Position numbers and translations under genes: made by a program. Shown piece after piece: positions 1 through 18,040 of a DNA stretch of 64,000 nt (position 1 is the stretch's first letter; the number at the start of each line of letters is the position of its first letter). Source of the stretch: Escherichia phage vB_EcoM_VR7. The stretch lies in the sequence record NC_014792.1. The stretch is one strand, 5' to 3'. The notes beneath the pieces were generated by a model. That model was not told where the DNA came from. It did no database searches and saw only the letters and a program-made list of their open reading frames with translations.

Positions 1-1
1 A

Positions 2-2242
2 TTATTCCTTATTGGCCGCTTCCACGGCCTTCATGATTTGAGCAACGTTCTGTACTTGTTCAGTTGACATGGCGTTACGGTTATATAAAAAGTGTGAAAC
101 AATCGGGTGATTCTTTTCAAATTCAAAAACCATTTTATCGCTTGTTACTGAAGCGTTTTTGGTCAGGTCGTCATAAATCTTATTACAAAGGACCAGAGTT
201 TCCTGCATGGTCCTGTCAACCGTTCCACTGTTATATGCGTTATAAGAAAAGAACTTATTGAACTGCATTAGTTCAGCATAGTCAGTGGTCACATCTTTCT
301 GAATATCTTTCGCATAAAAATACTTGAACATAAAATTCAGTTCTGCATATTCAGACAGGATAGGAATATAATAACGCGAACGGCTTGAAGCGGCAATGTA
401 CTGGTCCGCATCAACCAAATCAATCAATTCCACATAACGATTGACTGCAGCTTCAATCAGACAATCACACTGCGCCAGCTTGGTAACCTTTTTCTGAAGT
501 TGTGGACGAATAACACAGAATTCATTGATTTCCAACAGATTCGCCAGTTTACACAATGTCTGGGTCCCGAAGTTCGTAACGCCATATTCCTGATTCAACG
601 GGGAAATACTATTGCGGTTAATGAATACAGCATAACCATCGATTTCCTCTGCATCAGCAGCACATGTAAATTCTTCCACAGACTGCCATCTACCATTAGT
701 TTTAGTCCAACGAATCACGGATGGAGTCTTTGACTTAACACGCCTTTTTCGGGTCAAGCAAACCGGAATCCAGTCTTTTACAAGAGCAGTCAGTTCGGAT
801 GTACGATAGATATTAAACTGTATCGCCTTTAAAAACGTTCCTGAAGTTGAAACCATCAAGCGTGTCTGAATTTCGCTGGTCGGGTCAACAAACAATAGAC
901 TACTACCCTGCACCGTCGGAACTTTACCCGATGCTTTAAGCTTTTTGGCTTTCGCGCCGGTATCATACAACATTGAACTGATACCACGAATCATCGCAAT
1001 TCGCCCTTTAGCATCGTCAATAACAATGTTCAAGGTATCATTCTGGATACCAAACATGCTCGTCAGACTTGCCGTATTCGAGTTCGAGCTTGAGTTGCGC
1101 AGACGTTTCAGACGAGTATCACGATAGATATCATAGACAACCCCAGCGTTAATCAGGTCTTTATCCAGCTCGAACATTTCGTACATCTGGTTGAAAGTTA
1201 ATTGTGATTTTGTAAATTTTGTATCAGCATTAGTGGCTTTCAAAAAATTACGAGCTTCATAACTCAGACTCTGCAATTCGCGATACGTATGACGGAGGCA
1301 TTCTGATTCCTGCCATTTCTTACAATCATCTTCCATGACTTTCTTATCAAGGGCCTCAATACGTTCAACGATATTTGCGACCGTACGTTTGTCCAGCGAT
1401 AATGCTTCGCGAGAAGGTGCGATATCTAGCGAACCCATCGGGAACTTAATAAAGACGACATCATTTTTGGCAGTCATCCAGGTTTTCTTTGTATAACCAC
1501 CATCAATCGGATAAACAATCCCACCGTAAATTGCGTAAAGACCATACCGCTCTGGGCTGCTATAATCAATACGTTTTGGAGCATAATAATCATCGAATTC
1601 CGGGAAGTAATTAATTTCATTCGCGCCTTGCACATCAGCCAGCCCAGCAAACGGACGCATGATATATGCAATCTCATGACGGAACTTGCCGAAATCATTA
1701 CTATCGACCGGGACAACAACTTCAATCCCTGTACGGTCACCAGGTTTCATTGGTTCGCTAAAGGTTGGCTTAATCTGTGGACCATCACCATCCATATAAG
1801 CGACATAACCATTAACTTGACCATCATGATATGAAATCAGGCTAAACGTCTCTGTATAACTAAACGGAGATTTAGAGCCCAGACCAAAGCCACCAATAAA
1901 ATCGTTGGATTCAGCCTTGGATGATGCAAAGAAACTGTTATACAGACCAGGGGTATTTTCATCACCACGAATCTGGAAATCACTCATACCTGGACCAAAG
2001 TCACGACATACAAAACGTGGGTCCAGTTCACCAGGAGCTTGCACAATGAATTTATCCTGACAGCCATTGAGCATATGAGCATCAATCATGTTAGTAATAA
2101 GCTCACGAACAACAGCACGCACTTTGTTTGTGTAAAGGTCGCTGGTCAAAATCTTAAATACTTTTGGTGACGCCTGGATTGTAAATGCAGATGCCTTTGC
2201 GCCATTACCAAGGATTGTTTCTTTTTCAGTTTCTAAAATCAT
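2..2242 (-). CDS. rIIA: rIIA protein (GHKL-type ATPase fold)
   Basis: 746 aa; GHKL motifs ELITNMIDAH, DFGPGM, GGFGLGSKS; ATG start, TAA stop at 2-4; sits next to gp39 as in T4. Confidence 0.85.
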   Translation of the reverse strand: MILETEKETILGNGAKASAFTIQASPKVFKILTSDLYTNKVRAVVRELITNMIDAHMLNGCQDKFIVQAPGELDPRFVCRDFGPGMSDFQIRGDENTPGLYNSFFASSKAESNDFIGGFGLGSKSPFSYTETFSLISYHDGQVNGYVAYMDGDGPQIKPTFSEPMKPGDRTGIEVVVPVDSNDFGKFRHEIAYIMRPFAGLADVQGANEINYFPEFDDYYAPKRIDYSSPERYGLYAIYGGIVYPIDGGYTKKTWMTAKNDVVFIKFPMGSLDIAPSREALSLDKRTVANIVERIEALDKKVMEDDCKKWQESECLRHTYRELQSLSYEARNFLKATNADTKFTKSQLTFNQMYEMFELDKDLINAGVVYDIYRDTRLKRLRNSSSNSNTASLTSMFGIQNDTLNIVIDDAKGRIAMIRGISSMLYDTGAKAKKLKASGKVPTVQGSSLLFVDPTSEIQTRLMVSTSGTFLKAIQFNIYRTSELTALVKDWIPVCLTRKRRVKSKTPSVIRWTKTNGRWQSVEEFTCAADAEEIDGYAVFINRNSISPLNQEYGVTNFGTQTLCKLANLLEINEFCVIRPQLQKKVTKLAQCDCLIEAAVNRYVELIDLVDADQYIAASSRSRYYIPILSEYAELNFMFKYFYAKDIQKDVTTDYAELMQFNKFFSYNAYNSGTVDRTMQETLVLCNKIYDDLTKNASVTSDKMVFEFEKNHPIVSHFLYNRNAMSTEQVQNVAQIMKAVEAANKE

Positions 2243-2249
2243 GTTTTTC

Positions 2250-2459
2250 TCACTTTATATTACGTTTGAATAAGTCTGCAACTTCAAGAAGTTCATCCTT
2301 TGTTGCGGTGTCTGAAGCTATTTTAATACGGATTTCTTTGAAGCGTTCTTTAAACTCTTCAGCTTCTCTTATATCAAAAAATCGTTGGATAACACGGTAT
2401 TCTTTATGGACAACCTTGTCAAACAGTTCCAGATTCACTTTGAAGTTTGTCATTTCCAA
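2250..2459 (-). CDS. small hypothetical protein in rIIA.1 position
   Basis: 69 aa ORF directly upstream of rIIA; position only. Confidence 0.45.
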   Translation of the reverse strand: MEMTNFKVNLELFDKVVHKEYRVIQRFFDIREAEEFKERFKEIRIKIASDTATKDELLEVADLFKRNIK

Positions 2460-2718
2460 TCTCCTGTAATATTTTTCTCATACTACGCATGGTAGCTTTA
2501 TGTTCTTGGTCATGGTATATCAATGCAAGGAGTGCTTCAATTCGCTCCTCTGGGACCTTCTGACCATCCTTTATGCTCATGGCTGATGTTCTTACAGCCA
2601 ACAAGTAACTTCGCTTCCTGTCGCTATCTGGGAGCTCCTGTACCTTCCTCAGACCTGCTTCCATAATACAACGAGCAACATTCTGCAGATTAACTAAACT
2701 TCCGTCAGACATAATCAT
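2419..2718 (-). CDS. hypothetical protein
   Basis: 99 aa ORF; GAGGTGA RBS before ATG. Confidence 0.5.
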   Translation of the reverse strand: MIMSDGSLVNLQNVARCIMEAGLRKVQELPDSDRKRSYLLAVRTSAMSIKDGQKVPEERIEALLALIYHDQEHKATMRSMRKILQEIGNDKLQSESGTV

Positions 2719-2770
2719 ATTTTCACCTCAAAGACATCTTAACACAATTTTTGTGGCTTGTACATAATAA

Positions 2771-2796
2771 AAAGGTCTCCCGAAGGAGACCAAATT
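2771..2796 (-). terminator. UUCG-tetraloop hairpin with U-run
   Basis: ggtctcc-cgaa-ggagacc on plus strand; minus-strand reading gives stem, UUCG loop and a T-run. Confidence 0.6.
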
Positions 2797-2949
2797 TTAT
2801 TCTACTTTATAGACTTGACCATACGCTATGAAAGTTTCACCTTCCCAGGTCTCACATGTGATTGTTACGAATTCTGCAAACAAAGGTTTTTTCTCTGCCC
2901 AGAGAAAACCGTATTCACCTGTGGCGAGCGTAATCCAGTATTTAGTCAT
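2797..2949 (-). CDS. small hypothetical protein, possible late gene
   Basis: start moved to internal Met (MTKYWITL) with AGGAGA RBS; TATAAATA motif about 40 nt upstream. Confidence 0.35.
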   Translation of the reverse strand: MTKYWITLATGEYGFLWAEKKPLFAEFVTITCETWEGETFIAYGQVYKVE

Positions 2950-2986
2950 ATCGTCTCCTAGTAGCGGGAGAATATTCTCCCACATC

Positions 2987-2994
2987 TATTTATA
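2987..2994 (-). promoter_or_regulatory. T4-type late promoter motif TATAAATA
   Basis: exact TATAAATA on minus strand just downstream of the gp39 stop. Confidence 0.35.
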
Positions 2995-4819
2995 GCGTCG
3001 CATTCATCCAATCTTTGCGCAGCTTCGGTTCTTTACCGAAAAGCATTTCGAACAGTTCTTTCCAGTTGTCAGGTAATTGAACAACTTCGAAAACAGGTTC
3101 GAGCAATACGCGCTTGTACTCGGAATCTTCCAGAGAACCCAGTCCCTTGATATATCTGATGGTATGCTTCGGAAGTTTATCCTTAGCTTCTTCATAATCA
3201 GGGAGAGAATAGAACCATTCTTGTTTATCTTTTAGTTGCGCAATAATAACAGGAGTTTTCACAAAGCGAATACGTCCTTCATGGAACAGCTCCGGCCAGT
3301 TACTGAAAAATGCCAATAACGATGGATAGATACTACCAACGCCATCCACATCCGCATCTGTCATGATAGCGATATTTCGGTAATTCATATTCTCGGCTGG
3401 TTGTCCAATCGTTAATCCAGTAATCGCACACACATCAAAGGCTTCTGCGTTTTTCATAACTTCAACAGCTTTCAGACCCCATGTGTTTTTGAACTTACCG
3501 CGCAACGGATATGCACCTTGCAATTCGCGGTCACGAACCTTGATAAACGGTCCGGTTGCAGAATCCCCTTCGGTTAGGAACAAAGTCGTTTCCAGCTTGT
3601 CATTACCCCATTCGTTGGCCTTGATATGTTTCTGTACCTTGGCCTTTGAAGCTTTCTTATTCGCCTTTGTTTCTGCAGCTTTCTCTGCAGCCAATTTACG
3701 CGCCAATGCAGCTTCGACAATCGGCATAATCAGCGATTCATTTTTCAGAATAGCTTGAGCGATTTTCTTAGCATCAATTTGGATATGATTTCGAATCTCG
3801 CCAGCCGGAGAAGTCAATCGCTCCTTGGTCTGGGAATCAAATCGCATATTGCTCATATCGCGGATGAACATAAGCATGGTGAGGCATTCTTTAACTCGTG
3901 CCTTGGTCACCTCGATGCCTTTATATTTGCGCTTAATTGCTGGCTGAAGGTGTTCACAGATATCATCCATAACACATTCAACGTGGTGCCCACCATTCTT
4001 TGTATGGATGTTGTTAACATAAGTCAGCTGACGGAAACCGTCTGGGCTGGTCGTGAAAGCCATTGATACTGTATCAGTTTCCTGGATAACAACTTCAGTC
4101 CCGAATTGTTTGGAGAACTTCTTGAAGTTGCCATCAACCTTTTTACCATTAAAGGTAAACTGAATATCCGGGTAAACAACCGCAAGAGTCTGCAGACGGT
4201 CCAATGTAATATCCAGATAAATCTGGGACAAACTATTTTCTTCAAAGTGACTAAAGTCCGGAATAAAGATAACAGTTGTGCCTTTACCCTTAGATTTCTT
4301 GGTAGACCAACCTTTGTTTTCCATACCGTTGGAGCAGTTAACAGTAATTTCATTTGCACCATCAGCGGTAATCCCTGTAAACAATACAGAGAAAATATTG
4401 GTCAGAGAAGACCCGACGCCATTCATCCCGCCAGTTTTACGTTCAGCATCATCACCGAAGTTGCCCCCGGCTTTTGGAATAGTCCATGCTGCAACAGGCC
4501 CAGGGATTTGTTCACCGCTTTGGTCGACAACCATTGCTTGTGGAATACCACGGCCATTATCAGAAACTGAAATCTGATTATCTTTAATTTGAACATCAAT
4601 TTTATTGGCAAATTTAAAACTGGTGCGAATTGCTTCATCAACAGAGTTATCGATAATTTCATCAATCAGTTTTACAATACCAGGAACATAGCTTACGGAC
4701 TTATATTCACCAAACAAGAATCGCTCATGCGCTTCATTTGAACTGGAACCAATATACATCCCGCTGCGTTTTTTGATGTGTTCAATATCGCTTAAAACAC
4801 GAATTTCATTCTTAATCAT
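2990..4819 (-). CDS. 39: DNA topoisomerase II large subunit (single continuous 39+60-type ORF)
   Basis: 609 aa; GyrB-like GHKL motifs EIIDNSVDEA, DNGRGIP, GGMNGVGSS; uninterrupted ORF. Confidence 0.9.
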   Translation of the reverse strand: MIKNEIRVLSDIEHIKKRSGMYIGSSSNEAHERFLFGEYKSVSYVPGIVKLIDEIIDNSVDEAIRTSFKFANKIDVQIKDNQISVSDNGRGIPQAMVVDQSGEQIPGPVAAWTIPKAGGNFGDDAERKTGGMNGVGSSLTNIFSVLFTGITADGANEITVNCSNGMENKGWSTKKSKGKGTTVIFIPDFSHFEENSLSQIYLDITLDRLQTLAVVYPDIQFTFNGKKVDGNFKKFSKQFGTEVVIQETDTVSMAFTTSPDGFRQLTYVNNIHTKNGGHHVECVMDDICEHLQPAIKRKYKGIEVTKARVKECLTMLMFIRDMSNMRFDSQTKERLTSPAGEIRNHIQIDAKKIAQAILKNESLIMPIVEAALARKLAAEKAAETKANKKASKAKVQKHIKANEWGNDKLETTLFLTEGDSATGPFIKVRDRELQGAYPLRGKFKNTWGLKAVEVMKNAEAFDVCAITGLTIGQPAENMNYRNIAIMTDADVDGVGSIYPSLLAFFSNWPELFHEGRIRFVKTPVIIAQLKDKQEWFYSLPDYEEAKDKLPKHTIRYIKGLGSLEDSEYKRVLLEPVFEVVQLPDNWKELFEMLFGKEPKLRKDWMNATL

Positions 4820-5529
4820 TTCGTTTCCTCATGTTTGTTTAAGTATTTTATCGCATTTTTTAGCGAAGCAATATTGTCTTTAAACATTCCTAGACCGGTA
4901 TTGCACTGTCTACACAAAATGCCCCGAACATGTCCACCTTTATGACAATGGTCAACATTTTTACGAATAACAGAATCAAATTTAATACCACATATTTCGC
5001 AGGTCTCCGTCGTCTTAAGAAGAGACTTAATTACTCTATTAGGAGCCATTATGCCACGAGCTTTAGAAAATGGCCTATCCAATGCATTAAAATCTCGAAC
5101 ATAATTTTGACAGGTTTTAGAACAATAACGAGAAGTCCCATTTACAGCTTCATAAGGTTTACCACATCTTTCGCATAAATGTGTTTTAACATATTCGCCA
5201 CACCCAGCACATTCTTTAGAGCAATATTTATGATATCCTCTAACAAAAGTGTGATAATTAACTTTATTGGTGCATACCGCTGAACTACATAAAACAGGCG
5301 AAGTTATATCATTTAATACTCTATAACAAGCCTCATTTAGCGGAGACTGATTTCTCAAGCCTCCTTGGTTGGTTTTAGATATTTCTATTAATTCATCATA
5401 GAACTTTTGGTTATCATCCCAAAATTTTATATCACGTTTTAAAAGATTGCCGTTTAATTTGTTTTTGTTCTTAGTTAAAAGATTTTCTTCAATAAATTGT
5501 TTTAAGTTCATGGAGGTATTATAAGTCAC
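4816..5529 (-). CDS. putative HNH / endonuclease VII-family homing endonuclease
   Basis: C-terminal DHCHKGGHVRGILCRQCNTGLG matches the gp49 His-Me finger zinc motif; Cys-rich N-terminus; track start appears to be GTG with no clear RBS; overlaps gp39 start by 4 nt. Confidence 0.55.
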   Translation of the reverse strand: MTYNTSMNLKQFIEENLLTKNKNKLNGNLLKRDIKFWDDNQKFYDELIEISKTNQGGLRNQSPLNEACYRVLNDITSPVLCSSAVCTNKVNYHTFVRGYHKYCSKECAGCGEYVKTHLCERCGKPYEAVNGTSRYCSKTCQNYVRDFNALDRPFSKARGIMAPNRVIKSLLKTTETCEICGIKFDSVIRKNVDHCHKGGHVRGILCRQCNTGLGMFKDNIASLKNAIKYLNKHEETK

Positions 5530-5537
5530 ATATTTTA

Positions 5538-5562
5538 AAGCAAAAAGGCCCGAAGGCCTTAT
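5538..5562 (-). terminator. UUCG-tetraloop hairpin
   Basis: aaggcc-cgaa-ggcctt, followed by a T-run on the minus strand. Confidence 0.55.
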
Positions 5563-5819
5563 TCAAATCGAATGGTTGAATTCTTGAACAACAATCCAGA
5601 ACAAACAGTTCCTTTGACCTGTTTACCGGTCGGACCCACTGCTGTAAAACCAGTACGTTGGAAGTCATCTTCAGAACACCCAAACAAACTATACCCAGTG
5701 ATTTGGATTTGCTCATAGCCGCTTGCATCCAATACACGAACAGCATTATCTGCATCAGTACAACCAGCCAATGAAACTGCCAAAAATAGCGCGGCAATAG
5801 AACGATTAATATATTTCAT
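5559..5819 (-). CDS. putative lipoprotein
   Basis: 86 aa; signal peptide with lipobox LAGC. Confidence 0.55.
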   Translation of the reverse strand: MKYINRSIAALFLAVSLAGCTDADNAVRVLDASGYEQIQITGYSLFGCSEDDFQRTGFTAVGPTGKQVKGTVCSGLLFKNSTIRFE

Positions 5820-5826
5820 ATTTCCT

Positions 5827-5998
5827 CATTTAAGCAGGTCGTAAAACCCGCCATTAACATGTTTAGGGGCCGAGACTAGCCGAACAGCCAGCCGATGGCA
5901 ATCAGGACAAACATCATTATCTCTTTCAGAGATTTTCTTGATTTTTTCGTATTCTTTTGCGCAGTCTTTGGATTGGCATTTGTAATCATAAAGTGGCA
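5827..5998 (-). CDS. FmdB-like zinc-ribbon protein
   Basis: about 57 aa, MPLYDYKCQSKDC...CPDCH pattern; below the ORF-track length cutoff; coordinates approximate. Confidence 0.4.
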
Positions 5999-6006
5999 TC
6001 TCTAAA

Positions 6007-6366
6007 TTATTCCTTAAAGTGTGCTTTCAACATCTGGAAAACTGACCAGGCTTCTTCATTATTACTAATGGTGATTTTAGTCAATGGGAATGCAGTGATT
6101 TCTGGAGCTTCAGTTTCTTCATCGCCGTCATCCTTTTCTTCTTCAAAGAAATGGAATTCCTCTTCTGTTATGAATAGACTCTCCATCCCGCCGGTTGACA
6201 ATTCTATTTTATACACATCGCCACCTTCAATTTTGACTGGTCTAAACCCTTCGCCATTGATTATAGCATCAGCTATATTATCATTATCCGTGCATAACAA
6301 ACGGAATCTACTTTCAGAAACATTGTCTTTAAAATAATACCACTTATCAGTTTCAAATTTAGACAT
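6007..6366 (-). CDS. hypothetical acidic protein
   Basis: start moved to MSKFETD (AAGGAGA RBS, ATG overlaps upstream stop); acidic patch EEEKDDGDEETE. Confidence 0.5.
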   Translation of the reverse strand: MSKFETDKWYYFKDNVSESRFRLLCTDNDNIADAIINGEGFRPVKIEGGDVYKIELSTGGMESLFITEEEFHFFEEEKDDGDEETEAPEITAFPLTKITISNNEEAWSVFQMLKAHFKE

Positions 6367-6583
6367 TGTAAGTCTCCTTCCAAAAATCTGTACCATCTTC
6401 TGACTCTTCGCGGAACAAAGCATAGCTAGGTAGTTCCGCATCTTTATCTGCGTACACATAAATGATGTCAGTGGTGCAAAGAAATTCATTGATGTTTTTC
6501 TTAACAATCACTTTATCACTTTCAGCAGTATCCCAAAACTCTTCAGCGGTCAGGGAAGTGGTCACGCAATCTTCATTAAACAT
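6359..6583 (-). CDS. hypothetical protein
   Basis: 74 aa ORF coupled to the downstream gene. Confidence 0.45.
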   Translation of the reverse strand: MFNEDCVTTSLTAEEFWDTAESDKVIVKKNINEFLCTTDIIYVYADKDAELPSYALFREESEDGTDFWKETYNV

Positions 6584-6633
6584 AATATTCTCCTCATTGA
6601 TAGGGCAAAATTACCCTATCGTTATTTTATAAT

Positions 6634-7137
6634 TTATGCTCGATGAATGTTGGCATATTCAACGATAAAACTTTCAGGAACTACTTTAAAGGTTCCAGTG
6701 AACACGATGTTATACAGCTTAACACCCTCTTCAACCCATTGGTCTGTGATATAGCCAGACATGCTAGTAGTTTCGTAAGTACCAAACGGTTCGTCGTCAT
6801 ATTCAAAAGGTTTAGGAGAAACGAAAAAGACACCTTCACCTAATTTCCATTTAAAATCAACACCAACATGAGACTGGTCAATGGTTTCAACTTCTTCAAC
6901 TACAGGAGCGATATATCCAGTAAATTCAGTTGATTCCAGGAATTTAGCACGCACGTAGCCGAATTGTGTTTCTGTCTGACCATTTTTAGGAATAACACGT
7001 ACTTTTACTTCAGCGTTTTCAAGTCTGACACCTTCTTTAAGTTGAATACTAACAACTTCAACTAAACGGCCTGCGGCTTTTGAACGAGATTGTTTGGATA
7101 CGCGAACGATACCGCCGATATCGGAAATAGTAATCAT
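6634..7137 (-). CDS. hypothetical protein, shares C-terminal domain with 7215..7970
   Basis: 167 aa; C-terminal ITDQWVEEGVKLYNIVFTGTFKVVPES resembles the C-terminus of the next gene. Confidence 0.55.
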   Translation of the reverse strand: MITISDIGGIVRVSKQSRSKAAGRLVEVVSIQLKEGVRLENAEVKVRVIPKNGQTETQFGYVRAKFLESTEFTGYIAPVVEEVETIDQSHVGVDFKWKLGEGVFFVSPKPFEYDDEPFGTYETTSMSGYITDQWVEEGVKLYNIVFTGTFKVVPESFIVEYANIHRA

Positions 7138-7179
7138 AATTTTCTCTCTTGGTTAATAAGTTTATTCTCCAGTGGGACC

Positions 7180-7208
7180 ATTATACTCTGGCCCCAAGAG
7201 TTTGTACA
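7180..7208 (-). promoter_or_regulatory. early promoter, TGTACA-N17-TATAAT
   Basis: minus strand GTGTACAAACTCTTGGGGCCAGAGTATAATGGTCCC upstream of 6634..7137. Confidence 0.55.
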
Positions 7209-7214
7209 CTAAAC

Positions 7215-7970
7215 TTAATTAAAAATTTGAACAACCATGGAACGCGGGACAACAGTAAATTCACCAACATGGACGACGTTCAGGAGTTCAACACCATCTT
7301 CAATCCACTGGTCTGTTACCCAACCACAAATGGAACTATTAAATGGACGTTTGATTTGAACTGGTTTGCACAGCAAGTCAACAGGGTCACCCAGTTCGCT
7401 AACTTCTTTCAACAGTACAGATTCACGCGGGTAAAGGATAGCTTCAAGATGCTCGTCTGATTCATTGACTGCAGTAAATTCAAAGATGTTTAAGTGAGTG
7501 CTGTACTTAACTGTTTTTACAGTAAATGGAGCAAAGCCAAAAATACCTTTCAGCACACGCCAACCTGCATGCAGTGCGATAGCATTATCAAACTGGCTAC
7601 CATCTTCAATAAGCTGATATGTTTTACCAACTTTGATAGGAGTTTCTTCAACTTCTTTGAAAAGTTCAATCTCAGCTTCATAAACCATAATTTTTTCTAC
7701 TTCATTAGTATCCAGACGACGGGCATGCAAAATATATGCTTTATCAAACCAGTTACTTTTTACAAAAGTTTCAACAACAAATTCACCTTCACCCAAAGCA
7801 TCAGTCAGAGTTTCATACCCAGAAATCATAGCTGCGTTTTGAATAATAGGTTCAATCAGATGATAAGTTTTGTTAATTTCAATAGTCATATTTTGTTTCT
7901 CAAGTTTTAATGGTTTAATAAGAGTACCGTACATGCTTGCGATATCAAAGTCAATAAATTCTAGTTTCAT
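7215..7970 (-). CDS. hypothetical protein, paralogous C-terminal domain
   Basis: 251 aa; C-terminal VTDQWIEDGVELLNVVHVGEFTVVPRS. Confidence 0.55.
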   Translation of the reverse strand: MKLEFIDFDIASMYGTLIKPLKLEKQNMTIEINKTYHLIEPIIQNAAMISGYETLTDALGEGEFVVETFVKSNWFDKAYILHARRLDTNEVEKIMVYEAEIELFKEVEETPIKVGKTYQLIEDGSQFDNAIALHAGWRVLKGIFGFAPFTVKTVKYSTHLNIFEFTAVNESDEHLEAILYPRESVLLKEVSELGDPVDLLCKPVQIKRPFNSSICGWVTDQWIEDGVELLNVVHVGEFTVVPRSMVVQIFN

Positions 7971-8227
7971 TATGCCACCTCGTTGAACATCGCTAGTTGA
8001 TTGGGTTGCACAACCATAATTTCACGACGACCTTTTGCGTTTGACACGTTCAGGTAGATGCCTTTGTTCATGTCTGTTTCTTTATCATATACTGCAACTT
8101 TATTGACAGTAAAGATTTTACCACGAATATTTGTAAATGCACATTCAAACGCTTTGGTCAGACCTGCTTCAGCAGCTTGAATAGCAGACATTTCATATTG
8201 TTGGCCAATTTTAAAAGAAGTAATCAT
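7970..8227 (-). CDS. hypothetical protein
   Basis: start moved to MITSFK after the conserved leader and GAGGAAA RBS. Confidence 0.5.
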   Translation of the reverse strand: MITSFKIGQQYEMSAIQAAEAGLTKAFECAFTNIRGKIFTVNKVAVYDKETDMNKGIYLNVSNAKGRREIMVVQPNQLAMFNEVA

Positions 8228-8258
8228 TTTGTTTTCCTCATCAGTAGTTGATGAGATG

Positions 8259-8287
8259 ATTATGTCTCTTTCCATTGGCCTTGTACA
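8259..8287 (-). promoter_or_regulatory. early promoter cassette (TGTACA-N17-CATAAT plus conserved leader)
   Basis: GTGTACAAGGCCAATGGAAAGAGACATAAT then CATCAACTACTGATGAGGAAAACAAAATG. Confidence 0.55.
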
Positions 8288-8294
8288 CTACTTT

Positions 8295-8978
8295 TTATCG
8301 TTTTTTCGGTAAAGATAGCGGGTCTGCATCTTCTTCGGCAGGAACTTCATCTAAACCAAGAGCATAGCGCTGGGCGTACTTAAGCATAAGAATATCTTTC
8401 GCACAATCATGTACACTATCGTGCGCTACAAATCCATCCAAAGTCCCCTTCGGTAACGGAGTTTCACACATCTTACGGACGAGTGACAGTGCTTCGATTG
8501 CTGTTCGGATATCTCGCTGGTTCCAGAATACAACCGGTTCCAGGTCATAGGTATTCAATTCACGCTCAGGGATACCCTCATTGCGCTGCAGGTCGCGAAT
8601 AAGGTCAACAAACAACGGGAAGTCAAAAGACATCCCACGACACCACATAAGGCTTTCGTATTTGTTAATTCCGTTGCCCTTCAGATAGTCAATCGCTTGT
8701 TGGATACCAGTCAGAGTATCAACATCTTGTGCCATCGGCGCCAGGTTAACACGTGCTTCTGGAGATTGTTTTTTCCACCAACCCATGGTTGTTGTGTCAA
8801 ACAGACGTTTACCTTTCTGGTATTCTAGGCTGAACTTAATGCGTTTACCGCGATTAACCAGAGTTTCGAATGATTCCACAATAGCAGGGTCAGATTCGAA
8901 TGTAATCAGAGCCAGGTCAATAACGGCTCCCTTCGAGCCGTTTCCCAGAGTTTCAAAGTCAATAATAGCATCAATCAT
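8295..8978 (-). CDS. dexA: exonuclease A (DnaQ-like 3'-5' exonuclease)
   Basis: 227 aa; DEDD exonuclease start IIDFETLG; position between dda and the gp39 side as in T4. Confidence 0.8.
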   Translation of the reverse strand: MIDAIIDFETLGNGSKGAVIDLALITFESDPAIVESFETLVNRGKRIKFSLEYQKGKRLFDTTTMGWWKKQSPEARVNLAPMAQDVDTLTGIQQAIDYLKGNGINKYESLMWCRGMSFDFPLFVDLIRDLQRNEGIPERELNTYDLEPVVFWNQRDIRTAIEALSLVRKMCETPLPKGTLDGFVAHDSVHDCAKDILMLKYAQRYALGLDEVPAEEDADPLSLPKKR

Positions 8979-9210
8979 CGCACATCTCTTTTAATTTCTG
9001 AATTTCACCAGCAACATAGTCGGAGATAAAAATCCCGGGCTCTTCATTGTTAAAATATTCAATCGCAGCCATACGTTTCTGGATAAGGCTCAGTTCCAGT
9101 AAAACGTAATTGCCCTGTTGGACGATAGTCGGATTATCTTCGTAAAATTCAACGGCATCATGAATACCGTAGATAAGATTATCTAAATCTTCTTTATATA
9201 CCTTATACAT
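8971..9210 (-). CDS. hypothetical protein (dexA.1/.2 position)
   Basis: 79 aa ORF between dda and dexA. Confidence 0.45.
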   Translation of the reverse strand: MYKVYKEDLDNLIYGIHDAVEFYEDNPTIVQQGNYVLLELSLIQKRMAAIEYFNNEEPGIFISDYVAGEIQKLKEMCDD

Positions 9211-10531
9211 AATATGCGTCGTACCTCGCTCGTGTGATTCCTACATAAGCCAACTGGCTCGCTAATGAAGCTTCAGCCATATGGATGCATGGAGTATAGA
9301 TGAATGCTTTGTTTACTGAAACCCCCTGTGCCTTGTGGATTGTACTGACTGGAAGAGCGCGAACTTTCAAGAAGGTCCGGCGTGCTTTCCAGAAGTCTTT
9401 CCACTCTGGACGTTTACCAGCAGCTTTCATCTGTTTGTATGTATCAGCAACTTTCGCCAGAAATGCCTGGAATTTTGGTTGCTGGTCTTCTGGTAAAACT
9501 TTGATACGGTCAACCTGATATTCTTCATCTTCATCAATTGACTCAACTTCCAGGTCCCAGTAATTAATTACCAACTGGTGCGATTCCCCTTTACAACGGA
9601 GAATGGTGGAAGTGTATTTGCAATCCTTGATACGAACCAACTGACCATTATTAAAAATGGTTTCGCTGAATTTCTTACCTTCAAATTCCAGCTCTTTCAT
9701 GTGTGGCTCTTGCATAACCAGGACTTCATACGGTAAAAATGCTTTATCCGTTTCATAGAGCTTGCGACGAATAATATTGTTCAGTTTTTCAACTGATTTA
9801 TTCGTGTACGCATACATCCTATTTTCCATCAACATATCAGCATCTTTTACATGACTGAAATAGTTTACCATGAAATCCTTTAAAGCGGTTTGTGAGGTGA
9901 AACCTTGTACACCATGACCTTCATACATGCAATCACGGAACCAACCACCGTTACGAATTTCTGTCGCCACTTCAATGATAGGAGCATTGCTTCGCATGAC
10001 CTCAGTCAGATGAATCTGTTTGAACTTAGGATGCGTAAAGAATGGACTTATCTTTTGCTGTGTGCTTCCCGGGTCAACTGGCTGCAGCTGGTGCATATCA
10101 CCAATCCCAAGAATAGTACACCATTCAGGAACAGAATTGCAAATAATCTTAAACAGGGGCCCGTCATACATACTTGCTTCATCACAAATCAGAACATTAC
10201 ATTTTGACATATCAGGCATTTCGCGCTGTTCAAAAATGTTTTGGTCTTCATATGTGGTCGGGTTAATCTTCAGGATGCTATGGATTGTATTCGCTGTTTG
10301 ACCAGACAATTTGGATAAAACCTTTTTTGCCTGGTGAGTTGGTGCAGCAAGCACAATTCCCAAAACTCCATTACGCACCAGGTGGTCAATGACAAATTTT
10401 GTCAGAGTAGTCTTACCTGTGCCAGCTGGACCATTCAGAGTGATACATTCCCCTGAACGTCGCTGAATAGCTTCAGTGATATAATCAAAAGCTTCTTTTT
10501 GTCCTGTGTTCAAGTCTTCAAATTTAATCAT
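9203..10531 (-). CDS. dda: Dda DNA helicase (SF1)
   Basis: 442 aa; Walker A GPAGTGKTT; length and position match T4 Dda. Confidence 0.9.
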   Translation of the reverse strand: MIKFEDLNTGQKEAFDYITEAIQRRSGECITLNGPAGTGKTTLTKFVIDHLVRNGVLGIVLAAPTHQAKKVLSKLSGQTANTIHSILKINPTTYEDQNIFEQREMPDMSKCNVLICDEASMYDGPLFKIICNSVPEWCTILGIGDMHQLQPVDPGSTQQKISPFFTHPKFKQIHLTEVMRSNAPIIEVATEIRNGGWFRDCMYEGHGVQGFTSQTALKDFMVNYFSHVKDADMLMENRMYAYTNKSVEKLNNIIRRKLYETDKAFLPYEVLVMQEPHMKELEFEGKKFSETIFNNGQLVRIKDCKYTSTILRCKGESHQLVINYWDLEVESIDEDEEYQVDRIKVLPEDQQPKFQAFLAKVADTYKQMKAAGKRPEWKDFWKARRTFLKVRALPVSTIHKAQGVSVNKAFIYTPCIHMAEASLASQLAYVGITRARYDAYYV

Positions 10532-10827
10532 GCCAATTTTACTCGCTTAACATATAAAGTATCTAAAACTAATTTCAATTCTCGTGCGTGTTCTTCAGTA
10601 GGAAAAACAGTTTTTGTTTCACGCTTATCAAACCACCACTTCCTGGGAATATACCGTGTTTCAATACGTCCCATGCGTAAATAGCGGTTTGTAGTATATG
10701 AATAGTTGGCAAGTTCATAATCTGCGCCAGCTTTTGTGGTGTATAAGGTAACCTTTCCATCATACTCCAATGGGTGTTCAAAACCATCTTTATCTTTGTG
10801 GACCAGCACATATGCGTAGTACATCAC
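10528..10827 (-). CDS. hypothetical protein (dda.1 position)
   Basis: 99 aa ORF coupled to dda. Confidence 0.5.
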   Translation of the reverse strand: MMYYAYVLVHKDKDGFEHPLEYDGKVTLYTTKAGADYELANYSYTTNRYLRMGRIETRYIPRKWWFDKRETKTVFPTEEHARELKLVLDTLYVKRVKLA

Positions 10828-10828
10828 A

Positions 10829-11575
10829 TTAACCTCTAATCAGTTTAAAAATTGACGCGTTCAAAGGTAGACCACGTTTCAGTTTTAATTTACCAATAAA
10901 ACCAATCTTCTCAAAACGCTCAAGACCTTGAATGATTTTATCATAGCAATCAAAAAGCGTTTCAGCATTAGTTAATTTCTTGGTAACTTTCCAGTCATTA
11001 CCCTTGAGCAGGACATTCAATTTAGTAAGCTCATGGCCTTCTGCAATACGGGACCCATCAATGCGAGCCTTCAGAGCAACCATTTTTAATTGGTTTTCTT
11101 TTGACTGCTCTGATTTACTCATTTGGGCATAATGCTTAACGCGATTCTCACGTTTGTGCTGGATGTTCTTTATATGGTTGTATGACTTTTTAATCTGTTC
11201 CCATTTCTCTGAAGTCAGATTTAACTTTTCAATCTTCTTGGCAGATGGGCGAGCAATTTTTACAGCAACATCATCACGACGTTGTTTAAGCTCATCCAGG
11301 GACCAATCAGAACGCATGGTATTGTATTTCTTTTTAACAGGAATAACATTACCCTTGATATAACCAATATCATTGTTAAAACGTTCTAATGATAACTTCT
11401 CGTCTTCAATAGAGTTATTAAATGCTTCACCAGAATAAGCACAAACTTTTTGGTCAAGAATGTTAACCAAGTAATTGAAATCCAGGTTAAAGTCCTTACC
11501 ACGGCGTTTAGCAGAAGCTTGAGTGTGTTCCAGACGACGTTTAACTTTCAGCGTTTTGGTTTTTGATAAAGTCAT
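10829..11575 (-). CDS. hypothetical basic protein, possible His-Me finger nuclease-like motif (srd position)
   Basis: 248 aa; CAYSGEAF...LSLERFNNDIGYIKGNVIP resembles a DRID-GY-N-V nuclease motif; Lys-rich C-terminal half. Confidence 0.4.
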   Translation of the reverse strand: MTLSKTKTLKVKRRLEHTQASAKRRGKDFNLDFNYLVNILDQKVCAYSGEAFNNSIEDEKLSLERFNNDIGYIKGNVIPVKKKYNTMRSDWSLDELKQRRDDVAVKIARPSAKKIEKLNLTSEKWEQIKKSYNHIKNIQHKRENRVKHYAQMSKSEQSKENQLKMVALKARIDGSRIAEGHELTKLNVLLKGNDWKVTKKLTNAETLFDCYDKIIQGLERFEKIGFIGKLKLKRGLPLNASIFKLIRG

Positions 11576-11622
11576 GATATTTTTCTCATCTTACGGACGA
11601 TTAAATAACTCAGTATGGAATC

Positions 11623-11650
11623 ATTATACACTATTCATCTTTTATGTACA
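11623..11650 (-). promoter_or_regulatory. early promoter cassette (GATTCCATACTGAGTTA leader class)
   Basis: GTGTACATAAAAGATGAATAGTGTATAATGATTCCATACTGAGTTA. Confidence 0.5.
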
Positions 11651-11710
11651 CTACTTTTTCGCCTTTAACGCTTTTATTTTTACCGTGTATAATGGTTCTA
11701 AGGTCTTTGG

Positions 11711-12325
11711 TTAATTCAAAACAGTTAAATGCCAAACAGTATACAGGTTATTCAATGGGTGTGTCTCAATTAAATCTACGCGAAGCGTAGTCCCAGCGGG
11801 AAACATAAACTCATCCTCATCATTAACCAGGTGTAAGTTTGACTTCCTGGTTGCTTCTGGATATGCACCATTGAACTCTTCAGGAGGAGCACCGCAAATC
11901 ATTTTAAAGATTGCTTCCTGATAGTTATACGCATAAGGTGCATTGTTTATGCAGAAAATATTCCTTGTACCATAGAAGCTATATGATGCGAAATTTCTTG
12001 CAACCTGCCAGTCCCTGGAAAAACTCATCACACGATTAAACTCAATTGTTGCACCAACATATCTTAAATCTTCCAGGTGTTCCATGGTTTTCTTTGATAT
12101 ACCACGGAACAATGCCGCATGCGGTTCAGTGTTCAGATTGTTGCGGATAATCCTGGTTAAGTCTTCTTGAATCAGGTCGGGTTTATTTTCCATACACTGC
12201 CAGAGTACTGATTGCTCATTATCTGTATAAAGGGCATCAATCTCTGCTTGACATTGGTCACGAAAAGACTCGCTAGAAGCGGCAGTGTCAATAATTCCAT
12301 TCAAAACGTCATCAGTGTACAGCAT
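11711..12325 (-). CDS. ADP-ribosyltransferase, ModA/ModB-like
   Basis: R-S-E signature: LFRG, MSFSRDW, EDEFMFP; start moved to MLYTDD after conserved leader. Confidence 0.7.
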   Translation of the reverse strand: MLYTDDVLNGIIDTAASSESFRDQCQAEIDALYTDNEQSVLWQCMENKPDLIQEDLTRIIRNNLNTEPHAALFRGISKKTMEHLEDLRYVGATIEFNRVMSFSRDWQVARNFASYSFYGTRNIFCINNAPYAYNYQEAIFKMICGAPPEEFNGAYPEATRKSNLHLVNDEDEFMFPAGTTLRVDLIETHPLNNLYTVWHLTVLN

Positions 12326-12356
12326 TTTATTATCCTCATCAGTAGTTGATAGGAAC

Positions 12357-12385
12357 ATCTTAACGTGTCTTATTGTTCTTGTACA
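12357..12385 (-). promoter_or_regulatory. early promoter cassette
   Basis: TGTACA-N17-TAAGAT then TATCAACTACTGATGAGGATAATAAAATG. Confidence 0.5.
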
Positions 12386-12930
12386 CAGTCAAGAACATAA
12401 TAATCACCAACAAATCCAGCATCAACTATCACGAATTTCTGGTCAACTGGAACAAACCATTCAAGCTCAGAATCAATCATGTCCATATATTCTTCACGCC
12501 TTAATGTAGCTTCCTGTTTGGAACCAGATGCAGTATTGAAGAATTTCAGTGGAACATCAAGCGCGAGCTTACGCATCGCATCATGATAACAAAAAGCCTC
12601 GGTCTGATTTAATCTGACAATAGTCCTTGTCACATATTCCATTGCAGCAAAATCCCTGGCAATGCCATAGTCTTCTGTAAAGGAAGTTATTCTTCCAAAT
12701 TCAAAAGGTTGCATTGATTCTTTTGCTTCATCTAACAAATCAATCTCTTGCTGGGTAACCCCGCGATACAAGACTGTATCAGGTACAGATAGCCTTGACT
12801 TGATGATTGAGTTGACGTTTGAATGCAAGGTTTTGTCAACCTTTGATGTGCGACATTCAAACAATGAAGCTATCTCCATTTCACTAAATTTTAACTGGTT
12901 GGGTTCGGTATCAGATTTGATGATGTTCAT
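12370..12930 (-). CDS. ADP-ribosyltransferase, ModA/ModB-like paralog
   Basis: 186 aa; LYRG, ITSFTEDYGIARDFA, acidic EEYMDMIDSELEW; tandem with the previous ART. Confidence 0.6.
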   Translation of the reverse strand: MNIIKSDTEPNQLKFSEMEIASLFECRTSKVDKTLHSNVNSIIKSRLSVPDTVLYRGVTQQEIDLLDEAKESMQPFEFGRITSFTEDYGIARDFAAMEYVTRTIVRLNQTEAFCYHDAMRKLALDVPLKFFNTASGSKQEATLRREEYMDMIDSELEWFVPVDQKFVIVDAGFVGDYYVLDCVQEQ

Positions 12931-12986
12931 AATGACCTCTCTGTTGTAAGAAAGGCCATTATGTCATTAGGAGGAGAGTAAGTAAA

Positions 12987-13220
12987 CTACTTAAATACTC
13001 CAAGTGGGACGCCGAAGATAGCGATGTCTGCGGCCATGCCAATTGGGGATTGGCATGATGAGTAAGAACTTTTCGATTCTGCCGGGCGTTTGGCTTTAAT
13101 TGTCTCGGATTCAATCTTAAGCCTTTGCACACGATTAATTTTTTGTTGCTCGATTTCCTTATGGGCGTGTTTACGGTCAATATCCTGCGCCGATGTGGGG
13201 ATATTTGTTAACCAGTTCAT
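12987..13220 (-). CDS. hypothetical protein
   Basis: start moved to MNWLTNI, overlapping upstream stop. Confidence 0.4.
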   Translation of the reverse strand: MNWLTNIPTSAQDIDRKHAHKEIEQQKINRVQRLKIESETIKAKRPAESKSSYSSCQSPIGMAADIAIFGVPLGVFK

Positions 13221-13396
13221 AATTTCACCCATGGTGCCCACGGCGGTGGGTCGTCGTAATATGAGGCCAGGTCGCGTAGAACTTCCACTGGGAGACTAAA
13301 ACCGTGCTTCTGTATAATCGCATCAAGTTCGTCAACTAGGTCCACACGGGCTTCTGTGTGAGCTTTAGGCTCTTCAAAAAGTTCAAATAAATCCAT
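13219..13396 (-). CDS. small hypothetical acidic protein
   Basis: about 58 aa ([13 protein letters not shown]...), ATG overlaps stop of upstream gene; approximate. Confidence 0.3.
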
Positions 13397-13884
13397 TAGT
13401 AGCCACCGATAGGACCGTAACCATACATACGAGCACGTACCTTAGTATCATGCAGGGCATCTTCTGTTAAAGTAAAGCGCAGCCCAATATCAAAGTGTTC
13501 CCAAATCTGACGTTCGACTTCAGTAAGGTCTTCGGTAGTGGAAATCAGATAAGTGCGACCTCGAAGACGCTCATTGGAATTCTTGTCAGTATCTTTATAG
13601 AAAATATCTGCGGTTCCTTCGGCGTAAGGGTCCGGATGGCGATAACCTTTGATATGTAGGGCTTCAGACACGCTAAAAGGACAACCTTCGACAACATCAA
13701 CGTTTTTTCTATGAAATACCTTCATCATGATGTTTTCGGGCAACTTAATATCTTTTAATCTTGTTTCCAACTCAGTAACCGAATTCGTGCCATTATAAAC
13801 CATGATAAGACAAGCTGTTGCATCGTAAGGTCGTGTTTGCCCGGCAGAATCACGGACATAGAATTCTAATTCATATACTTTCAT
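13396..13884 (-). CDS. hypothetical protein (mrh region)
   Basis: 162 aa ORF between the mod genes and soc. Confidence 0.5.
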
Positions 13885-14031
13885 AATGTTTTCCTCTTAC
13901 CGACTAATGGACCATCAGGAACTTTATTTTCCTTGATGTACTTTTCGTTTTCTTCCATCATTTTACTACCAATTTTCAAAAGCAAATCCAGTGCTTCTTT
14001 TGCCCGGCTTTCGGCATCTTCTTGAGTCATG
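13882..14031 (-). CDS. small hypothetical protein
   Basis: about 49 aa; approximate. Confidence 0.3.
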
Positions 14032-14221
14032 ATTTATCTCCATAGATATCACGCATCAGTTTAAGCGATGCACGTTCGGTCTTCTTTTCCTGCATGTCTT
14101 TAAGCCCGTTAGCAGCCCATTCTTCGGCTTCGCGCTGCATTTCTTCTTCGGCCCGGGCTACCCAGGAATCATCAATTCCTGGAGTAACTAACCAATCTTT
14201 AAGCCAACTTGTAATTCTCAT
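14027..14221 (-). CDS. hypothetical protein, N-terminal paralog of 14222..14560
   Basis: 64 aa; N-terminus [15 protein letters not shown] resembles MISWLKNLFKTKPG. Confidence 0.45.
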
Positions 14222-14560
14222 TTAATCACACGAGCTGGAAGACGAATCGCAGCTTCCTGAATCATAGGATGAATAAGATGAATCACCAGTCCACGAACTA
14301 ACCGCGGCCGCAGTCACCACAATCGAAGTAGTATCGATATGACTTGTACGGCGAGCATCCAGATGTTCTTTTAACTTTTTAGAATTCAACGGCAATGCAC
14401 CTACGCCAACATTACCAGCTTTTTCTGGTTGACGAATAACTTCTTCCATCATACCATCACCCATGTAAACATATTCTCTTAGTTTTACATCCGATGGCGC
14501 GATAGGAACTACACCTTCACCTGGTTTAGTCTTGAATAAATTCTTGAGCCAACTAATCAT
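14222..14560 (-). CDS. hypothetical protein with Ser/Cys-rich C-terminal tail
   Basis: 112 aa; ends SSYSSYDSGSCDSSSSSCD. Confidence 0.5.
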   Translation of the reverse strand: MISWLKNLFKTKPGEGVVPIAPSDVKLREYVYMGDGMMEEVIRQPEKAGNVGVGALPLNSKKLKEHLDARRTSHIDTTSIVVTAAAVSSWTGDSSYSSYDSGSCDSSSSSCD

Positions 14561-14754
14561 AGGAAACCTCGTTTAAATTCAACTTTACCATCATCACAAC
14601 GGATTTCAATATTGAATTCTAAAGAATCATCATCGTGCATCATGAATGAATGTACGATAACCTCATCAAACACACCCAGGCCATACTTAAAATGGACATC
14701 ATGAGCAATAATTTCATCTAAAGCTTTGTTTGGTTTAATCCAACGGTTTAACAT
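14557..14754 (-). CDS. hypothetical protein
   Basis: 65 aa coupled ORF. Confidence 0.45.
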   Translation of the reverse strand: MLNRWIKPNKALDEIIAHDVHFKYGLGVFDEVIVHSFMMHDDDSLEFNIEIRCDDGKVEFKRGFL

Positions 14755-14799
14755 AGTATTCTCCTCTGTAATTGAAATAATTATACCATCTCTATTAAA

Positions 14800-14830
14800 A
14801 GCAAAAAAGGGAACCCGAAGGTTCCCTTTA
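14800..14830 (-). terminator. UUCG-tetraloop terminator downstream of soc
   Basis: gggaacc-cgaa-ggttccc with flanking A/T runs. Confidence 0.65.
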
Positions 14831-14831
14831 A

Positions 14832-15065
14832 TTAAACAATATCAGTCGGCGTAAACATTGCCTCGTTTTTGGTCTTCCAGTCGGCAGCATCAGTGACCAC
14901 AGTTGAGTAGGCCGCTACCGCCGAAGGGAAAGTCTGATAATGAGCATTAGCAATACGATGCGCATCAGAATAGATTTCAAACGGAACCGAAACCTCAGTA
15001 CCTTTAACTTCTTTACCTACACCAGCTGCATGCGTAAAGGTTTTGATATTAACGAAACCACCCAT
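14832..15065 (-). CDS. soc: small outer capsid protein
   Basis: 77 aa; GFVNIKTF...HYQTFPS...AAYSTV recalled from T4 Soc; late promoter upstream. Confidence 0.85.
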   Translation of the reverse strand: MGGFVNIKTFTHAAGVGKEVKGTEVSVPFEIYSDAHRIANAHYQTFPSAVAAYSTVVTDAADWKTKNEAMFTPTDIV

Positions 15066-15095
15066 AATAACTCCTTTGTTGTTTAATTACAGGTG

Positions 15096-15103
15096 TATTT
15101 ATA
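15096..15103 (-). promoter_or_regulatory. late promoter TATAAATA for soc
   Basis: exact TATAAATA about 30 nt upstream of soc ATG, AAAGGAG RBS between. Confidence 0.6.
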
Positions 15104-15129
15104 TCGGTTTTTATTTGTCTTTAAACAAT

Positions 15130-15816
15130 TTAAATGCCTCTAAATTCATATATTAAAAGTTTAAGTGCACTAGGGGTTGTTTCGTATTTCCCTTTAAGTG
15201 CTTTAACCACGGCAGTTGCCCCACCGGGTTTACCTAATGAAAGCCAAATCTGATAGATTTCACTTTTCAACGGTTCATGCCAATGGGCAGCGGTTCTTTG
15301 AGCTTTAGATGTGGCTTCTGATACGATTTTATTTCCACCATTTGCGTAAAACTCATTCATTGCTTCTGATTGTCTGGATTTGCGTTCAGGCCTATTTTGA
15401 GCGGTGCTTTGAGCTTCCTTCATTTTGGCTTTGGTTTTTGGTTTGTTTAAACGCAATGTTTGGGCCAACTTCATTTCGTCCGTCCATTCGTATCCTTCAC
15501 CACCCTGTCCACCGGGTAAAATATTAATACAATTTGAACCATGTTTAGAATTTAATAATGATATTATATATCTTTCATGTTCAAACATCATTTCCCGATT
15601 CTGGTGACCTACAAACCAACGAATTTTATATTTGACCCCATATTTTTTATAGATATTCCAAAGTATTTTTCCAGAGCCAGGATATCGGTCTTTATTTGGG
15701 TCTAATACATTGGTCTCATGTTTACCACCATACCAAAAAACGCCTTTCGGCGTTTTAACTTTAATTATATAAGTTCTATAAAATTTTGCCTTAATAGCCA
15801 TGGTCCTGGCGCTCAA
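15130..15816 (-). CDS. putative GIY-YIG homing endonuclease (segF position)
   Basis: 228 aa; YIIKV...FWYGGKHE, EHERYII, NILPGGQGG; basic C-terminal DNA-binding-like region. Confidence 0.5.
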   Translation of the reverse strand: MSARTMAIKAKFYRTYIIKVKTPKGVFWYGGKHETNVLDPNKDRYPGSGKILWNIYKKYGVKYKIRWFVGHQNREMMFEHERYIISLLNSKHGSNCINILPGGQGGEGYEWTDEMKLAQTLRLNKPKTKAKMKEAQSTAQNRPERKSRQSEAMNEFYANGGNKIVSEATSKAQRTAAHWHEPLKSEIYQIWLSLGKPGGATAVVKALKGKYETTPSALKLLIYEFRGI

Positions 15817-16309
15817 AGTTGGCTTTATTTTTGAGATAATAAAGCTTGAATATTTGTTGTGCTGAGCATATTAAGACCAATAGCATATTGAATACAAGAA
15901 AGTGCATAATGTCAATTAGTTCAAATTTAATTTCAAGCTGGTCTTCAGGAGACATTTCTGAAATTGGTTTAGATTGAGCTTCGGTATAACGAGCTTTCCA
16001 TTTTTTCCACACAGCAGACGCGTCTTTCTCACCTTTAGACATTTCACCGAGAGAGGTCAGAAGCTCACGGAATTCGTCATCAATACAATCTTTTTGTTCG
16101 CGCATCCAGGCAACAACATCACCCGCGGTGGACAGTTTATCTGGATGATAGCAATATTCTCGGTCATTAGCCAGACGAACCTGCAATGATTTCTGCATAT
16201 CAAGCATAATCTGCAGCGGGTCATTACTAAAAGCAATAGCTTTAGTATAAGCTTCTTCGGCTTTGTCAACACCAGCAATCAGTTGTGAACATTCATTAAA
16301 ATGTGCCAT
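15791..16309 (-). CDS. 56: dCTP/dUTP pyrophosphatase (MazG-like)
   Basis: 172 aa; MAHFNEC N-terminus and EFRELLTSLGEMS...KWKARY match recalled T4 gp56. Confidence 0.85.
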   Translation of the reverse strand: MAHFNECSQLIAGVDKAEEAYTKAIAFSNDPLQIMLDMQKSLQVRLANDREYCYHPDKLSTAGDVVAWMREQKDCIDDEFRELLTSLGEMSKGEKDASAVWKKWKARYTEAQSKPISEMSPEDQLEIKFELIDIMHFLVFNMLLVLICSAQQIFKLYYLKNKANFERQDHGY

Positions 16310-16391
16310 TATTTTTCCTTATCAATTCATGTTGTTTGTATGTTAATTATATCATATTGAGTTGAAGCATAAATAAAAGAAAGGAGGATGT

Positions 16392-16589
16392 ATGCTAAAA
16401 CTATCTAGTCTAATTCAAGCCATTAAAGGCAGTCGTAAGCGAACGATTTTGGCCCTTTCGATACTCTGTTCAGTTCTTTTATGGAACTTCATTGTCGCCC
16501 CTATTGCATTGGCACATGGTCTTGTGCTTCCAGTCGTTGCCTTCGAATCAGTTGTAGATGTTTCACTGGCATTAATCGGCCTTATATAG
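16392..16589 (+). CDS. small membrane protein (plus strand)
   Basis: 65 aa; strong RBS AAAGGAGGATGTATG; hydrophobic segments. Confidence 0.5.
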   Translation: MLKLSSLIQAIKGSRKRTILALSILCSVLLWNFIVAPIALAHGLVLPVVAFESVVDVSLALIGLI

Positions 16590-16597
16590 GTGGAACT

Positions 16598-16867
16598 ATG
16601 GGAACATTATTCTATCAGATATGGAAATTAACCAGTAAGAAAGACAAGAAGCTTATCATGGGATTTTTAGCTCTTGATATTTTCCTGTGGAACTTACTGG
16701 TTGTACCTATCGCCGCAACACAAGGGGTACACTTACCCCAGGTCACAATGGGGCATATCCATTCCATCATCGGTTTACTTTACCGGAATCCCTTCCTAAA
16801 CTTTTGCGTACTTCGAAAGTCGCATTCTTGCCATCAACCCTTTGGGCACGTTATCAGCCATATATGA
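16598..16867 (+). CDS. small membrane protein, paralog of 16392..16589
   Basis: LALDIFLWNLLVVPIAATQG resembles LALSILCSVLLWNFIVAPIALAHG; 3' end converges on primase; end uncertain. Confidence 0.4.
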   Translation: MGTLFYQIWKLTSKKDKKLIMGFLALDIFLWNLLVVPIAATQGVHLPQVTMGHIHSIIGLLYRNPFLNFCVLRKSHSCHQPFGHVISHI

Positions 16868-17824: not shown

Positions 17825-17856
17825 AGTTTCCTCATTTCAATGGCCCCGGAGGACCA

Positions 17857-18024: not shown

Positions 18025-18040
18025 AACACCCCCTTTCCGC

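Follow-up and report, generated by a model that had tools for sequence, protein, structure and literature searches.

A single open reading frame (ORF) in the 64-kb window (the whole stretch of DNA analyzed here, 1..64000) is almost certainly an ordinary gene 39 that was never split, encoding the large subunit of a phage type IIA topoisomerase in one 609-aa chain (2990..4819, minus strand). We observed the ORF itself, its collinearity with both gp39 and gp60 of phage T4, and its domain motifs, and we found no component of the cassette that interrupts the T4 locus. The topoisomerase ORF in itself holds nothing new: an unsplit gene 39 is the default in T4-like phages, T2 and T6 included. The gene is annotated in this form in hundreds of genomes, the biochemistry of the enzyme has been studied in T2 and T6, and the T6 structure has been solved. 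What the window gene does is to reconfirm that the bypass (ribosome hopping) of T4 gene 60 is a derived and well-documented exception brought about by a mobile cassette. It also has a small practical use as another "empty site" allele, a possible MobA target from a genus outside Tequatrovirus.

An unsplit gene 39 in a Gaprivervirus-like phage

In the ORF listing of the window, minus-strand positions 2990..4819 form a single ORF with an ATG start, 609 aa and a stop codon. A GAGG Shine-Dalgarno sequence is placed 8 nt upstream of the ATG, and in-frame stops occur shortly 5' of it. The minus-strand gene order is rIIA (2..2242), rIIA.1 (Pfam T4_RIIA1), a 99-aa DUF7367 ORF (2419..2718, minus strand; Pfam E = 2.3e-38), a small ORF, the 609-aa ORF, 39.1, 39.2, goF, cef and motB. 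The synteny rIIA / rIIA.1 / 39 / 39.1 / 39.2 / goF / cef / motB is common to the window, T4 and the phage VR25, whereas T4 has no annotated counterpart of the DUF7367 ORF between rIIA.1 and gene 39. A tRNA scan and an Rfam scan at the gathering threshold, both run over window positions 1..64000, found neither tRNA genes nor Rfam matches.

We compared positions 2000..6000 with a phage collection (megablast) and found 96.6% identity to VR25 (Escherichia phage vB_EcoM_VR25) and 91-94% identity to VR20, SP18 and several TH phages. The matched relatives belong to Gaprivervirus (Straboviridae, Tevenvirinae), and by sequence similarity the window phage is a Gaprivervirus-like T-even coliphage. Gene 39 of these phages (VR25, VR20, SP18 gp39, TH40) is the same gene with the same neighbors as in the window; nucleotide identity is 94-100% over most of the gene, and the TH40 protein is 99.3% identical. 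The VR25 homolog (gp005, YP_009209747, 1830 nt) is annotated as "DNA topoisomerase II large subunit, similar to T4 gp39". The ORF itself, its match to PHROG 543, its alignment with PDB entry 8YLU and VR25 gp005 are the basis on which we annotate 2990..4819 (minus strand) as an unsplit gene 39 for a DNA topoisomerase II large (GyrB/ParE-like) subunit.

The match to PHROG 543 ('DNA topoisomerase II large subunit') extends over aa 1-608 (E = 2.3e-278). Four domains follow one another along the chain, all encoded on the minus strand. The core of a GHKL ATPase domain occupies aa 49-189 (4253..4675; Pfam HATPase_c, E = 3.2e-10, above cut-off), with the N-box, G1 and G2 motifs present as EIIDN at 54, DNGRGIP at 87 and GGMNGVG at 130. 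A transducer domain comes next, at aa 250-385 (3665..4072; Pfam DNA_gyraseB, E = 1.8e-15, above cut-off), with its QTK loop at QTKERL, residue 330. The Toprim domain is continuous at aa 412-494 (3338..3586); its Pfam match is weak (E = 0.0088, below cut-off), and the assignment also draws on its motifs, EGDSA at 417 (E417) and DADVDG at 488 (D488-x-D490), which stand on one chain. A C-terminal Toprim-associated domain completes the protein at aa 522-607 (2999..3256; Pfam TOPRIM_C, E = 1.2e-07, above cut-off). The GyrB/ParE models of NCBIfam gave sub-threshold matches only, as one would expect of a phage enzyme; they are silent on the question of the split. Judged by these domains, the 609-aa protein is a predicted B-type subunit of type IIA topoisomerases (GyrB / ParE / T-even gp39).

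One ORF is collinear with T4 gp39 and gp60

T4 gp39 and gp60 were taken as queries from NC_000866, with gp60 joined over its annotated 50-nt bypass. Residues 1-475 of the window ORF align with T4 gp39 aa 1-473 at 74% identity (695 bits; blastp), and residues 475-606 with T4 gp60 aa 28-159 at 71% identity (E = 5e-70; blastp). In addition, PHROG 7229, the gp60-type family, matches aa 453-607 of the ORF (E = 5.6e-60). When the whole 64-kb window was searched with tblastn, gp39 matched once, at 4819..3395, and gp60 once, at 3397..3002; the two matches adjoin each other in one frame, with nothing between them, and no second gp60-like copy was found in the window. The part equivalent to gp39 (aa 1-475; blastp and tblastn) thus corresponds to 3395..4819 and the part equivalent to gp60 (aa 475-609 plus the stop codon; blastp, tblastn and PHROG 7229) to 2990..3397, both on the minus strand, and the codon equivalent to the T4 split point is that of A475 (3395..3397). 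A 609-aa ORF with such matches to T4 cannot have arisen by chance. A prior sequence-only reading of this DNA had proposed that one 609-aa ORF spans gp39 and gp60, and the ORF listing, blastp and tblastn bear this out with coordinates and length exact, the strand (minus) being added here; the C-terminal part, whose correspondence to gp60 that reading had left to be confirmed, aligns with gp60 over 132 residues at 71% identity.

Among solved structures, the best match is PDB 8YLU chain C, which is T6 gp39 (PMC11461880); it aligns in one stretch (1-606 to 1-604, 1041 bits). The second-best is an artificial fusion of T4 gp39 and gp60 (8YO3), which aligns in two stretches. Like the window protein, the unsplit gp39 of T6 (and T2) is a single chain of ~605 aa with the same domain order (PDB 8YLU, 8YO1, 8YOD; PMC11461880), it keeps the E...DxD residues, and its partner gp52 is encoded separately. 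Indeed, window residues E417/D488/D490 align with E415/D486/D488 of T6, the residues named in PMC11461880. Amino acid identity between the window protein and T6 gp39 is about 75% (the value obtained with Tequatrovirus proteins), with two single-residue length differences; T6 and T2 belong to Tequatrovirus, whereas the window phage is Gaprivervirus-like. Human TOP2A (aa 10-574) and TOP2B, bacterial ParE (aa 6-575) and GyrB also gave single-stretch alignments that span residue 475; therefore a continuous Toprim domain is the state in the cellular homologs too.

No component of the T4 cassette is present at the locus

T4 genes 39 and 60 together encode the same ancestral protein as the window gene and occupy the same position beside rIIA and rIIA.1. 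They differ by an insert, which extends gp39 by a 43-aa tail and gp60 by a 30-aa head and brings in a mobA pseudogene, gene 60.1 and a 50-nt coding gap; the window lacks all of these. According to published work, the mobA/bypass element is mobile and was inserted into an ancestral Topo2L gene (PMC11461880; bioRxiv 10.1101/2022.08.31.505936).

We searched the window for each part. The C-terminal tail of T4 gp39 (aa 474-516, CTE) had no significant match in the window (tblastn), the best having E = 0.044 and lying elsewhere, and neither did the N-terminal tail of T4 gp60 (aa 1-30, NTE; E = 7.3, tblastn). The 76-nt T4 bypass region gave only chance matches of 10-14 nt in the window (best E = 0.81, blastn-short). 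Intact MobA of phage HY01 had no match at the gene 39 locus (tblastn); its sole match in the window is in a different ORF, at 41175..41366 (E = 5e-7, tblastn).

The T4 coding gap is positioned between Gly46 and Leu47 of gp60, inside the motif DADHDG|LG. At the equivalent position, between G493 (GGC, 3341..3343) and V494, the window reads GAT GCG GAT GTG GAT GGC GTT GGT without interruption, encoding DADVDG-VG (aa 488-495). Around the equivalent of the MobA site, window DNA differs from the Tequatrovirus target at many synonymous positions. All features of the split type (two ORFs, insert-derived tails, a 50-nt coding gap, a mobA gene or pseudogene) are accordingly absent from the locus. The proposal that neither a gene 60, nor a bypass element, nor a homing endonuclease separates the two parts of the ORF agrees with the tblastn and blastn-short searches, which found none of them there.

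Two other explanations of a continuous ORF were weighed. A gene once split by the MobA cassette could have been rejoined when endonuclease and bypass were precisely deleted, as in the 'hit and run' re-fused genes of an Aeromonas phage clade (bioRxiv 10.1101/2022.08.31.505936), and there is homing-endonuclease traffic nearby in the window (the ORFs at 4816..5529 and 40779..41459, discussed below). Such re-fused genes, however, keep sequence homologous to CTE and NTE at the insertion site (bioRxiv 10.1101/2022.08.31.505936), whereas both T4 tails lack a significant tblastn match here. Moreover, gp39 residue 473 meets the first matched residue of gp60 (28 by blastp; homology is recognizable from ~31) directly at residue 475, without any intervening residues, and the length of 609 aa matches that of T6 (605 aa) and of VR25. 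We rejected secondary re-fusion, which we consider very improbable, because no extra residues are present at the junction. An error of assembly or base calling that erased a real interruption would also yield a continuous ORF. Yet the same 1830-nt gene is found in the independently sequenced VR25 and VR20 (94-97% nucleotide identity) and in TH40 (99.3% amino acid identity), and about two thousand phage records share the layout. Since many relatives that were sequenced independently have an identical layout, we take an assembly artifact to be excluded; we would give it even less credence than re-fusion. The reading that we retain is that gene 39 of the window phage was never invaded by a cassette at the insertion site of T4.

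The unsplit gene as the ancestral state

It has been reported that an ancestral large-subunit gene of T4 was split into genes 39 and 60, that the T4 insert carries MobA, as a pseudogene, that intact MobA moves the split and the 50-nt insert into T2, and that each insert-bearing clade has 96-99% identical genomes without the insert (bioRxiv 10.1101/2022.08.31.505936). That preprint cites work from 2011 on the mobile cassette as its reference 19. The Topo II of T2 and of T6 consists of two subunits (PMC11461880).

We compared the T4 locus with the unsplit gene of the Tequatrovirus KIT03 and found 95.8% identity over nt 1-1418 and 97.7% over the last 349 nt, with a 1104-nt insert in T4 replacing 51 nt of the KIT03 gene. 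Against the window gene, these two segments of T4 reach only 72% and 70% nucleotide identity. The cassette region of T4 (T4 2790-3920) was found in 43 phage records of the collection, all of them 97-100% identical. By comparison, the window protein matched 2204 records of the collection (tblastn), and in 1998 of these the match extends over 80% or more of its length. Among 40 rows taken at even steps down this ranking, just one (phage BF15) has a homing endonuclease annotated under a two-piece match. Several database annotations already read "60plus39" or "identity to both gp60 and gp39 of T4".

Because the Toprim domain is continuous in T6, TOP2A, TOP2B, ParE and GyrB, because the KIT03 gene matches the T4 flanks, and because the T4 cassette is rare, the comparisons support the view, already stated in the literature, that the unsplit gene is the ancestral state from which the T4 layout derives. 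T4 genes 39 and 60 are this gene in the form it took once the mobA homing-endonuclease/bypass cassette had invaded it. The earlier suggestion that the uninterrupted form seen in the window may precede the T4 layout therefore stands as far as the ancestral state is concerned, but the window gene, with 70-72% nucleotide identity to T4, did not itself give rise to the T4 genes. The T4 layout came directly from the Tequatrovirus version of the gene, 96-98% identical to the T4 flanks; the window gene is a cousin of that progenitor, in another genus, which has kept the same ancestral layout.

Partner subunit and proposed activity

T4 gp52 found nothing in the 64-kb window (tblastn). A gp52 homolog is present in VR25 at 164742..166121, and in both T4 and VR25 gene 52 is found past rIIB, across the conventional start of the genome; by synteny, gp52 of the window phage should lie beyond rIIB as well, outside the window.

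The gp39 of T6 has been characterized biochemically and structurally (PMC11461880), and the mechanism that we propose follows this enzyme and its family. By analogy with T6 and T2, two large subunits and two copies of gp52, the GyrA-like subunit with the catalytic tyrosine, would form an A2B2 type IIA topoisomerase, and we infer that the large subunit encoded in the window assembles with gp52 in this way. As in the family and the T6 structures (PMC11461880), ATP binding would dimerize the GHKL gate, so that the T-segment is captured, and the E...DxD residues of the Toprim domain would hold Mg2+ for cleavage of the G-segment by the tyrosine of gp52. During phage replication, the enzyme would use ATP-dependent strand passage to relax and decatenate DNA; the expectation of ATP-dependent relaxation and decatenation comes from the identity of about 75% to the characterized T6 gp39 (PMC11461880).

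An endonuclease ORF and a mosaic patch at the start of gene 39

Immediately upstream of gene 39, and outside the topoisomerase gene, is a free-standing ORF of the Endonuclease-VII/HNH type (4816..5529, minus strand), with 237 aa counted from a GTG and an ATG at 5511. It matches Pfam Endonuclease_7 (E = 2.6e-18) and PHROG 1271, HNH endonuclease (E = 1.4e-29). Its stop codon overlaps the start of gene 39 (ATGA), and the ORF sits between a terminator-like hairpin of gene 39.1 (5545..5560) and the ribosome-binding site of gene 39. VR25, VR20 and TH40 lack this ORF; at the same place, VR26 carries one that is 50% identical (gp006). Kinship of this endonuclease with MobA was considered and rejected (blastp E = 0.63).

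A mosaic patch at ~4749..4830 (minus strand) takes in the ribosome-binding site of gene 39 and the initial 60-70 nt of the gene itself. Here VR25 and TH40 differ sharply from the window, over the first ~60 nt of the gene together with the ribosome-binding site, whereas just downstream gene 39 is identical to both. Identity to VR25 is 0.90 over 4691-4790, versus 0.92-1.00 in the rest of gene 39. With the Klebsiella T4-like phages HMGUkp2 and SAKp28, by contrast, the patch shares 95% identity, and HMGUkp2 has no endonuclease at the equivalent locus.

Co-conversion beside free-standing homing endonucleases is known in T-even phages, and the pattern of the patch looks like such a co-conversion tract. 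We tentatively raise the possibility, which we hold to be somewhat less probable than its negation, that the ORF at 4816..5529 encodes an active homing endonuclease targeting the 5' end of gene 39, which arrived together with the co-converted patch of ~70 nt (~4749..4830). If this is true, a second and unrelated endonuclease lineage attacks the large-subunit gene, at a site other than that of MobA.

Other observations in the window

The region that contained the sole match of HY01 MobA belongs to a Mob-type HNH homing-endonuclease ORF of 226 aa (40779..41459, minus strand), which matches the N-terminus of HY01 MobA (E = 5e-7, tblastn) and PHROG 655, 'homing endonuclease' (E = 1.2e-28). We considered it as a candidate for the MobA of the cassette and rejected it as an unrelated Mob-type HNH ORF away from gene 39. 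Two ORFs from it (about 480 nt) is an 87-aa ORF with a CxxC motif, glutaredoxin/thioredoxin-like as judged by eye.

At the opposite end of gene 39, the stretch between the DUF7367 ORF and the gene (2701..2998), which contains the small ORF at 2797..2985 (minus strand), is 99-100% identical to VR25 and only 73-82% identical to VR26 and to TH40, the latter being nearly identical to the window inside gene 39. A further boundary of recombination thus falls at the 3' end of gene 39. In VR25, a shorter ORF of 50 aa is annotated at the equivalent of 2797..2985.
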